Below are positions 37,895 through 40,203 of a stretch of DNA of 64,000 nt, in pieces (positions within the stretch are counted from its first letter, which is position 1; every line of letters starts with the position of its first letter). The translations under genes were made by a program, and so were the position numbers. Location of the stretch: the IMG/VR virus record IMGVR_UViG_3300033463_000075, positions 18,164 to 82,163 of that record; one strand, given 5' to 3'. This DNA is from a virus (Duplodnaviria > Caudoviricetes). The notes under the pieces were generated by a model that had not been told where the DNA came from, made no database searches, and saw only the letters and a program-made list of their open reading frames with translations.

Positions 37895-38968
37895 TTAAAA
37901 CCTCATAATCTTTCAAGGATCTTTGTCTGTTGTGTTATATAGTTTCTTATTAGACTGATCTGGTCTAAAGAAGCCAAATGTTTCAAAAGTAATTTCATTT
38001 AACATTCTGCAGCCCTTAAATAAGTCAGTAGCTTGCTCTATTATATCTACTTGAGCATCTTTTGTAAATACTAATTTAGTTAGATCAAAACAGTTTGCAA
38101 AAGCTGCATCTGCAATATAGTCTACCTTATCTGGTATCACTATACTTTTTAATCTTGTGCAGTATTCAAAAGCATGCTCTTTAATATCAGTTAATACACT
38201 GCCTGCTTCAATAAATACTCCTGTTAAGGCAAGGCAATTCTTAAATGCTCTTTCACCAATAGTGTCAACAGATTGTGGTATAATTATTGACTTTAATTCA
38301 AAACAGTCTCTAAATGCGCTATTGTCTATAAATGTTAATGTATCAGGTAGCTTTACATCTGTTAGATGACGACTTTCTAAAAATGCTGCAATACCTAAGC
38401 TTTCTATAGGGCTGTTTATAACTACTTTTTCAGCTCTGCAATGTTGGCATAGTCTTGGTGGAAAATCTGTTATATCAGCATTTATTGTTAAGCACTTTGT
38501 TTTTAAGTGGTCAAATGCTTGTCCCCCAATAGCAGCTACACTATCAGGTATAAGCACATCTTCTGTAAAGGCTGTTCATTTAAAAGCTTCATTACCAATT
38601 TTAATTAAGTCAGGTCCAGCATTAAACTTACCCAAGCTGGCACATTGATAGAAAGCACTATTGCCAACATCAACTAATTCTTTTGGTAGGCCTTCGATTT
38701 TTAAGCTCTTACAGCCATAGAATGCATCTTCAAGTATATGTATAACGCTATCTCAATTTTTAATTGTTGTTAAGTTCTCACAACCCTTAAAAGCATTTTC
38801 TCCAACTGTTGTTACATGATTGCCAAAGTCTACGCTTTTAATTGTAGTATTAGGATAAAAAGCACCATTGGCTATTATCTTAACTTCATCAGGTAAAATA
38901 ATATCCGTGTCTGTGCCTTTATAATCTATTAAGGCTCCATTTAATATTTCAAAATCTGTATTAGTCAT
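37895..38968 (-). CDS. BspA-type LRR protein G (357 aa, 3 TGA)
   Basis: TGA 38753, 38576, 37913 in frame; TAA 37895. Confidence 0.85.
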
Positions 38969-40203
38969 TATCTTGAAACCTCTTGTGTATCTTTAATAGT
39001 TATATTTCTGCCATCAAATACACCAATTGTATCGGAGTACCTATTGCCAGAGTTATTATATTCAACTGCTTTTATGCCATCATAACCAAGATTTTTAGCT
39101 ATATCTCTGAAAGCATTTGAGCGTAAAATAGTGTATACATATAAGTCTTTTTTGCCTTTTACCATTTCAGCTGCAGCATCACTTACTAGCTTTTTAGTTT
39201 CAGCTAAGCTAATATCAAGCTTACTTATTACTTTTAGAAAAGCCTCTGAATAATCATTGCCTACAAATACCTTGTAAGAGCTATCACCTACATCTAAAAG
39301 TTTTAGCTTCTTTATATTGCAAGTATATAAATAGCCTTTGTCAGAGTCGCCTAAAGCATAAGACTTAGCATATAGCTTATCATCTGTTAGCCAAACTGTA
39401 TGGTTATTGTTAGCAAAGCTTTCTTTATATTTGCTACTGCCATTATAATATACAGGTCCGTCTAGAGCAGCTCCAATACCTGGAATAGTAGATAAATCTA
39501 AAGCTTCATCTACATCTTCTTTTATTGGAATGACTTTTCAAGTGCCAGTACGGTTTGATAAAGCAAAAGTCTTAAATCTTATCATATATAATTTATTACA
39601 GCCCTTAAAAATTTTTTCTGGTTGTGCCACTAAGCCTATTTGTTTGTCTGACTCAAAGCGAACTACACCAAGGTTTTCGCAGCCTTCAAAAGCATCTGAC
39701 CAAATGCTGTCAACATCAGCCGGAATATGAATGGCTTCAAGTTGCTTACAATTCGCAAACATTTTAGCATCTATTATATGACAATTTTCTGGCCAATCAA
39801 AGAACTTAATACCGGTGCCTGCAAAAGCAGCTTTCATGATACATCTGGGTGTATCATGATATTGTCAGTCCCATTTTATAGTAGATAACTTTTCACAGCC
39901 CTCAAAAGCAGAATAACCAATATTAACAGTATTAGGTCTTAGGTATACAGCTGCTAAATTAGGCATCTCATTACAAGAAAGTTCATTAATTTGTTCTGTA
40001 TATTTAAAGTCTATTCTCTTTATCTTCTCTTTTCTGCTAAAACAGCCTGTTTCAATAGTTGAAATTGTATCAGGAACATATACAGAAGCTGTAGGTAAAT
40101 CTTGTGAGCCATCTCAACCAATGGCTCTATCTTTGCCATTAATGCCCGTCCCTTTACTTATTACTCATGGCCCTAAGTTAATAGTTTTACCTACGTTGCT
40201 CAT
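38968..40203 (-). CDS. LRR protein F fused to ADP-ribosyltransferase-like (ART-PolyVal-like) domain (411 aa, 4 TGA)
   Basis: TGA 40165, 40114, 39865, 39538; C-terminal PVYYNGS...VWLTDDKLYAKSYA...LYTCNI...GYDGI...GVFDGRNI. Confidence 0.75.

Follow-up and report, generated by a model that had tools for sequence, protein, structure and literature searches.

The gene at positions 38968 to 40203 on the minus strand of the window analyzed here raises two questions: whether a frame crossed by four TGA codons is translated as one protein, and what a protein with leucine-rich repeats (LRRs) at one end and an ADP-ribosyltransferase (ART)-like domain at the other might do. The window comprises the final 64 kb (64,000 nucleotides) of an 82-kb IMG/VR record (IMGVR_UViG_3300033463_000075; CheckV completeness estimate 41%) from a large uncultured T4-like myovirus. 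We find that this phage reads TGA as Trp and that the gene is a single LRR-ART frame. The reading that we favor, with confidence evenly divided for and against it, is that of a two-domain protein whose LRR part would recruit a macromolecule and whose ART-PolyVal domain would bind nicotinamide adenine dinucleotide (NAD+) and transfer ADP-ribose to the recruited partner; it draws on homology and on a predicted structure.

TGA is read as Trp, and the LRR and ART parts share one frame

Among the 56 minus-strand genes in the window, the stop codons are TAA (48) and TAG (8), with no TGA. In-frame TGA codons number 91 (vs. 105 TGG) and occur in 33 of the 56 genes. In 178 tblastn alignments with orthologs in related phages, TGA codons of the window stand opposite TGG 92 times and TGA 62 times, then opposite Phe and Tyr codons, and never opposite Gly codons. 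The cap Trp that closes the LRR domain is encoded by TGG in five and by TGA in five of the ten LRR paralogs. TGA is thus Trp in this phage, given that no gene ends in TGA, that TGG or TGA stands at these sites in orthologs, and that the cap-Trp codon is split between TGG and TGA in paralogs. With this code, the gene has the following features:

38968..40203, minus strand: whole gene (P0001), 411 amino acids with TGA read as Trp, in a single frame from 40203 to 38968 with TGA at codons 13, 30, 113, and 222
40201-40203, minus strand: start ATG, overlapping the stop of the upstream LRR gene (TAATG)
39538..40203, minus strand: BspA-type LRR part, residues 1-222, to the cap Trp common to nine paralogs (Pfam and paralog alignment)
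40165..40167, minus strand: in-frame TGA, Trp13 (frame translation)
40114..40116, minus strand: in-frame TGA, Trp30 (frame translation)
39865..39867, minus strand: in-frame TGA, Trp113, in a WDW motif (frame translation)
39538..39540, minus strand: in-frame TGA, Trp222, the LRR cap Trp at the domain junction (frame translation, paralogs, and ortholog codons)
39457..39537, minus strand: linker, residues 223-249, of low to middling model confidence; a D-E-[AS]-L-[ND] motif also precedes the domain in homologs
38971..39456, minus strand: predicted ART-fold domain of the ART-PolyVal family, residues 250-411, starting at about 250 (AlphaFold2, fold searches, and homology)
38968-38970, minus strand: stop TAA, overlapping the ATG of the next LRR gene (TAATG)

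The N-terminal part matches Pfam LRR_5 (PF13306) with 80.1 bits (E = 1.8e-22; cut-off 27.7), and its solved relatives are gut-bacterial LRR proteins and Treponema TpLRR (PDB 4fs7, E = 9e-22; 4gt6; TpLRR 6mlx). It can be aligned with nine neighboring paralogs from the N-cap through the cap Trp. After the cap Trp the paralogs have a short tail and a stop, and the present gene has the linker and a second domain.

Under genetic code table 11 the frame falls into pieces, and no tRNA gene was found on the 82-kb contig; both would suit an alternative in which the TGA at 39538 ends translation and the sequence downstream belongs to a gene of its own, to a remnant, or to an assembly chimera. We consider this very improbable. 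The sole in-frame ATG, GTG, or TTG past the junction TGA is Met350, which would yield a 65-amino-acid stub without the N-terminal half of the ART domain, so that the C-terminal domain cannot be made alone under the standard code; the three earlier TGA codons, the first at codon 13, would already halt translation. TGA is a sense codon throughout the window, opposite TGG in orthologs, and the frame is the same across the junction. Five contigs, among them Logan SRR10393135 and ENA ERZ27257207, yield the identical 411-amino-acid protein. Codon usage is also uniform, that of the ART part matching that of the phage (relative synonymous codon usage: r = 0.92; GC at third codon positions: 0.206 vs. 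0.200), which argues for a settled gene and not a recent insert or chimera. We regard the single-frame LRR-ART architecture as certain.

An earlier note, made from the sequence without database searches, had described this frame with readthrough of the cap-Trp TGA, a linker IKEDVDEALD, and the motifs PVYYNGS, VWLTDDKLYAKSYA, GYLYTCNI, GYDGI, and IGVFDGRNITI; all are present in the 411-amino-acid frame. Its statement that the putative enzyme domain is made only when TGA is decoded agrees with the Met350 result, which rules out separate translation under the standard code. Its further idea, that dependence on TGA protects a standard-code cell, gained no specific support: the TGA density of the gene (4 in 411 codons) is ordinary for the phage, similar densities being found across the 33 TGA-bearing genes, and the ART part has no TGA codon.

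Several observations on decoding were made alongside. Related phages carry 28-33 clustered tRNA genes each. Two of them, G004 and G003, have atypical tRNAs with TCA in the anticodon loop (L077:888-976 and L073:774-849, both minus strand), which are candidate UGA decoders; ARAGORN reads their anticodons as 'tcac' in an 89-nucleotide gene with a long variable arm and as 'ca' in a 6-nucleotide loop. There is also a tmRNA-like call (L092:1579-1963). Across the window TGA codons are distributed very unevenly, with none in the capsid, protease, sheath, and endonuclease genes or in those encoding proteins of 739 and 815 amino acids, 15 in a 954-amino-acid FrhB-pyruvyltransferase-glycosyltransferase fusion (32980-35844), and eight in a 282-amino-acid GT8 gene (31230-32078).

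The C-terminal domain has a predicted ART fold

An AlphaFold2 model of the domain built with a 51-sequence alignment reached a mean predicted local distance difference test score of 91.3 and a predicted template modeling score of 0.81; a single-sequence model of the whole protein (39.6 on the former scale) was unusable. The modeled elements run from strand 1 (VYYNGS) through strand 2 with its helix (VWLT..YAKSYA), strands 3-4, and a helical insert (about residues 320-371) to three C-terminal strands with GYDGIKAVE. A Foldseek search of the PDB with this model returned the anti-CRISPR protein AcrIF11 first (6kyf, E = 5.8e-4) and the NAD+ phosphorylase toxin MbcT second (6fkg, E = 1.1e-3), followed by 9k3a_B, a pre-ejectosome ejection protein of cyanophage A4 (E = 1.9e-3), PARP4, and tankyrases.

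Comparison with 48,161 representative chains by VIA-align gave a similar picture: 49 of the best 50 rows, classed from their entry titles, belong to the ART superfamily. The top matches were diphtheria toxin 7k7b (Z = 8.2; 126 residues, root mean square deviation 3.9), 9k3a_B (Z = 8.1), and diphtheria toxin 1dtp (Z = 7.7), followed by tankyrase and PARP1 (7.6-7.7), MbcT (7.4), exotoxin A (7.2), ParT (7.0), AcrIF11 (6.9), and pertussis toxin (5.1); the other matches include PARP2 and PARP3 (completing PARP1-3), cholix toxin, Arr, Rhs ART toxins, NatT, RES toxins (Xre-RES), scabin, and Tpt1. The individual Z values are middling, and the near-unanimity of the list carries the weight of the argument. 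Among viral models in BFVD, 60 matched at E <= 1e-3, and many of these carry the name ART-PolyVal or polyvalent protein (best named match: E = 1.0e-6), and the ESM Atlas neighbors of our model and of the Atlas model of homolog P0020 fall into ART-PolyVal, RES, and DUF3990 clusters. The fold search that the earlier note had proposed as a check has thus returned an ART fold by AlphaFold2, Foldseek, and VIA-align, and the model predicts that the C-terminal part is a domain of the ADP-ribosyl clan with a split beta-sheet core.

The same lists bear on what chemistry the domain might perform. MbcT stands second in Foldseek and high in VIA-align, Xre-RES, NatT, ParT, Arr, Tpt1, and scabin also match, RES clusters are Atlas neighbors, and the family has a conserved Arg361-Ser362 pair together with Glu381. 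The domain might accordingly be read as an NAD+ glycohydrolase or phosphorylase like the RES and MbcT toxins, or as an ART that modifies a nucleic acid or a small molecule instead of a protein held by the LRR. We think this unlikely, since the sequence groups with ART-PolyVal and not with RES, AcrIF11 as the top Foldseek match is a protein ART, and the LRR, a protein-binding partner, argues for a protein target.

One of the structural matches deserves mention in its own right. Residues of about 1418-1606 of PDB 9k3a chain B match the model as well as diphtheria toxin does, and would constitute an ART-like domain packaged in a virion; the paper on the cyanophage A4 pre-ejectosome does not contain the words ADP-ribosyl or ribosyltransferase (PMC12002296).

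The domain is related to ART-PolyVal

Aligned alone to the Pfam profile ART-PolyVal (PF18760), the domain covers profile positions 17-128 of 140 with 19.7 bits (E = 0.0016), still below the cut-off of 31.2. With phmmer, run exhaustively on 1.84 billion cluster representatives, we obtained 53 matches at E <= 1e-3, 27 of them at E <= 1e-10, and 15 of the 53 match PF18760 (best 6e-35). Five homologs (P0036, P0037, P0041, P0048, and P0049) match the query at E values of 1e-6 to 1e-4 and score 35-58 bits on PF18760, above the cut-off over the full profile. A profile-profile comparison (hhalign) of the query and its 24 closest homologs with six Pfam-matching members, five above the cut-off and one just below, gave 99.96% probability (E = 4.7e-39) over 142 columns. 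The likeness to ART-PolyVal suggested in the earlier note is upheld by these comparisons and by the BFVD models, though the direct Pfam score remains below the cut-off, and by homology we class the domain as a divergent ART-PolyVal relative rather than a clean Pfam member.

The query subfamily is divergent, with a longer helical insert; its closest members are 35-42% identical to the query and mostly undetected by Pfam. These closest members come only from metagenomes, some from contigs that read TGA as Trp. Partner domains in the homologs are SprT-like, Fic, Hcp, nucleotidyltransferase, and DUF5662 domains, of which the first four agree with the theme of polyvalent effectors in Iyer et al. 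2017 (PMC5512222); LRR_5 occurs in the query only.

Other searches returned nothing further. PDB sequence searches with the domain, the family profiles, and P0048 found no ART; neither tblastn of the domain (GenBank phages, PLSDB plasmids) nor blastn of the gene (phages) gave a match; and a related-locus search with the whole protein found no relative. A search of the phage's own contig with the PF18760 profile also found nothing, in line with the low score of the query on that profile. Among 5.8 billion proteins, word-based searches returned only the protein itself or two long proteins without LRRs, and no second LRR-ART-PolyVal fusion, which is weak evidence of rarity. The fusion was seen in no other homolog.

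Close homologs of the ART module lie on other large phage contigs, alone or with N-domains of unknown kind (L099:5945-6529 and L101:8001-9179). One is on a contig that reads TGA as Trp; another is near a Dam methylase and a weak S-adenosylmethionine-lyase match, in a neighborhood that looks anti-restriction.

Most conserved core positions are kept, and the strand-1 His is Asn

Iyer et al. 2017 (PMC5512222) define ART-PolyVal by a strand-1 His, a strand-2 Tyr, and an acidic strand-5 residue. The corresponding positions in the query are:

39442..39444, minus strand: Asn254 (AAT), at the strand-1 His position and one base from a His codon (AAT vs. CAT)
39370..39372, minus strand: Tyr278, Tyr in 49 of 50 homologs and a candidate nicotinamide-stacking aromatic, along with Trp271 and Tyr293 (homolog alignment)
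39061..39063, minus strand: Glu381 (GAA), Glu in 49 of 50 homologs and a candidate catalytic acid (homolog alignment and range offset)

In the 50 aligned homologs, 10 columns are occupied to at least 90% by one residue (Gly255, Trp271, Tyr278, Thr308, Leu329, Phe365, Gly373, Tyr374, Glu381, and Gly394), and His254, Arg361, and Ser362 are also strongly conserved. The query departs from these at two positions only, having Asn for His254 and Ser for Thr308. The core residues that it keeps are Tyr253, Gly255, Ser256, Trp271, Thr273, Tyr278, Tyr293, Cys295, and Asp304 and, on the C-terminal side, Arg361, Ser362, Phe365, Gly373, Tyr374, Asp375, Glu381, and Gly394. For the strand-2 Tyr, the invariant aromatics Trp271, Tyr278, and Tyr293 are all present, each a candidate for the catalytic Tyr; for the strand-5 acid there are Asp375 (Asp in 29 of 50) and Glu381; the strand-1 His is Asn254. 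That the usual His is Asn had been seen in the earlier note, and the identity of the protein on five contigs argues that it is not an assembly slip.

Structural ranges place Asn254 and Glu381 on residues of solved ARTs, the mapping being taken from the ends of aligned ranges and not from residue-level superposition. The range for 1dtp starts at model residue 27 and toxin residue 16 (offset 11), which puts Asn254 (model residue 32) on His21 of diphtheria toxin and Glu381 (model residue 159) on Glu148; that for 6kyf starts at model residue 28 and chain residue 3, which puts Asn254 on His7 of AcrIF11.

We take the NAD+-using transferase as the most economical reading because the other core positions are kept, because the module serves as an effector cassette elsewhere, and because its structural neighbor AcrIF11 is a proven phage ART. 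One gene of a late operon in a T4-like phage with UGA as Trp would then give a two-domain protein in which the N-terminal BspA-type LRR, drawn from a ten-paralog array, recruits a target macromolecule, and a C-terminal ART domain of the His-Tyr-Glu/Asp (H-Y-E/D) class, to which diphtheria toxin, the PARPs, and AcrIF11 belong, binds NAD+ and ADP-ribosylates what has been recruited. In proposing it we infer that the domain uses NAD+ and transfers ADP-ribose, that the LRR does the targeting, and that the target belongs to the host.

A number of results weigh against this reading. The whole protein scores 17.0 bits on PF18760 (E = 0.01), below the cut-off, and AcrIF11 is a neighbor in structure and in features, not a proven family member. 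Papers on the family yielded no assayed member of PF18760 proper and none with an assigned target. Position 254 is His in 38, Arg in eight, Thr in one, and Leu in one of the 50 homologs, and of the 51 sequences in the alignment the query alone has Asn there; the AlphaFold2 model was built on His-bearing homologs and cannot show the effect of Asn. The strand-1 His is the key NAD+-binding residue of the class (PMC8120803; PMC7955679); replacing it in diphtheria toxin is reported at second hand to lower activity at least 70-fold (Blanke 1994, via PMC7955679), and the H20A/Y46A double mutant of AcrIF11 loses its function (bioRxiv 10.1101/2024.08.26.609590). No macrodomain or other ADP-ribose eraser was found on the contig, and no immunity gene nearby. 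The fusion is not conserved among relatives, either: the closest one, whose capsid protein is 90% identical, carries just two LRR genes, and an ART domain is missing both from the 10 kb that follow its capsid gene and from its 76-kb contig as a whole; three near-complete relatives are also without the ART domain. The fusion is therefore dispensable.

The uniqueness of Asn254, the role of the His that it replaces, the missing eraser or immunity gene, and the patchy distribution are also what would be expected of the main rival, in which His254Asn has cost the ART-like domain its NAD+-dependent catalysis, leaving it as a binding or scaffold module on one LRR paralog, as proposed for PARP13 and for the ART-like domain, flanked by LRRs, of eukaryotic LRRC9. 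We hold this pseudoenzyme to be possible and on balance doubtful. Glu381, Asp375, Tyr278, the Arg361-Ser362 pair, and other core positions are kept, which is not expected after long-term loss of catalysis, and Arg is tolerated at position 254 in eight homologs, including P0036, which lies above the Pfam cut-off; such Arg variants within the family imply that the position is not rigid. Asn is reportedly the one substitute for His21 of diphtheria toxin that keeps most of the activity. For an active transferase, Asn254 in place of the NAD-binding His may lower or tune activity.

Comparison with known systems

Like ART-PolyVal (PF18760; Tox-ART-HYD2-like), which occurs in polyvalent proteins of phages and conjugative elements (PMC5512222), the domain belongs to a phage element, acts as a cassette joined to unrelated partners, and has a predicted function; transitive and profile-profile homology and the predicted structure place it in that family. 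It differs in falling below the Pfam cut-off and in having Asn for the strand-1 His. It is not part of a giant polyvalent protein but of one of 411 amino acids inside an array of LRR paralogs; LRR and leucine-rich have no occurrence in the ART-PolyVal survey (PMC5512222), and the partner here is a BspA-type LRR.

AcrIF11 (6KYF, 8DWQ), a mono-ADP-ribosyltransferase anti-CRISPR, is the experimentally proven case of a protein ART that disables a host defense complex (PMC8120803; bioRxiv 10.1101/2024.08.26.609590). Besides being the first PDB match in Foldseek, it shares with our domain a small size, an origin in phages or plasmids, and a variable helical insert between the N- and C-terminal strands. 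The two are 12-15% identical with no match at the sequence level, however, and AcrIF11 keeps its His7 and stands alone, recognizing its target by its own surface and not through an LRR. The catalytic domains of diphtheria toxin and the PARPs (His-Tyr-Glu, or H-Y-E, ARTs) are the best VIA-align matches, with about 10% identity; in contrast to the toxin, the phage protein has Asn for His and no translocation or receptor domains.

The ARTs Alt, ModA, and ModB of T4 (PF03496) are a precedent for T4-like phages that produce an ADP-ribosyltransferase along with their late gene products, and Alt is packaged and injected (PMC5512222). They belong to the Arg-Ser-Glu (R-S-E) clade, whereas the present domain is of the H-Y-E/D type with H-Y-E-type nearest structures, and it has no match to Pfam ADPrib_exo_Tox (PF03496) at E <= 1. 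Packaging or injection of the LRR-ART protein would be an analogy across ART clades, and no sign of a capsid-targeting sequence was seen in it.

The IpaH/SspH LRR-NEL ligases are effectors that combine LRRs with an enzyme, and the logic proposed here would be like theirs. They and eukaryotic LRRC9 (PMC7955679) resemble the phage protein in joining a recognition repeat domain to a catalytic or ART-like domain, but the LRR subtype is unrelated and the ART clade is different; most active-site residues are missing in LRRC9, whereas here only the His is changed. An LRR-aimed ADP-ribosylating effector, as inferred in the earlier note, is a plausible reading.

Gene neighborhood and distribution

The minus-strand genes of the window include a gp20-type portal, a prohead protease, a gp23-type major capsid protein, a head-tail adaptor, a tail sheath, and a tail tube. 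The ART-LRR gene stands among LRR genes followed by three glycosyltransferase genes, in a block between the capsid gene with a homing endonuclease and a neck gene. No terminator-like site was found on the minus strand from 42975 to 31207, which places the gene inside an LRR/glycosyltransferase operon that looks late. Sigma-70-like promoter matches were not above chance (88 found vs. 77.5 expected), PADLOC gave no match, and a search of genome contigs for the neighboring glycan-enzyme fusion found nothing that would indicate a host. The endonuclease, which separates the major capsid gene from the LRR array (45061-46512, minus strand), is a homing/HNH endonuclease of 483 amino acids (phrog_3339 at 2.7e-54; DUF7487) without TGA codons.

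Relatives with capsid proteins 70-90% identical reach 200-223 kb in size. The fusion is a lineage-specific, settled accessory gene. One relative (G002) encodes a 453-amino-acid protein (L066:1258-2619, plus strand). Its N-domain is ART-PolyVal-like, bears the His (WYHGT), and shares 27% identity with the query domain; its C-terminal part is zinc-finger-like and rich in Cys and His. It lies directly upstream of the large terminase gene and is undetected by Pfam; the same position in the query phage is past the end of the contig.

Implications

The gene combines known parts in a new arrangement, the BspA-LRR partner and the Asn variant being what is new. Few of the effector modules predicted in phages and plasmids are as common as ART-PolyVal domains, and an LRR attached to a compact ART protein of 411 amino acids offers an experimental handle for finding a target. 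The natural change from His to Asn is a test of how strictly this clade requires its NAD-binding His. The fusion also suggests that the neighboring LRR array may act on intracellular proteins rather than decorate the virion. As a more far-reaching proposal, and quite an unlikely one, the ten-gene array might be a set of diversifying binders of host intracellular proteins, such as immune sensors, with the present paralog (F) as its enzymatic arm, disabling a host defense protein in the manner of AcrIF11 with an Asn-Tyr-Glu active site. The gene is invisible to standard-code annotation, and recoded phages hide effector genes in this way.

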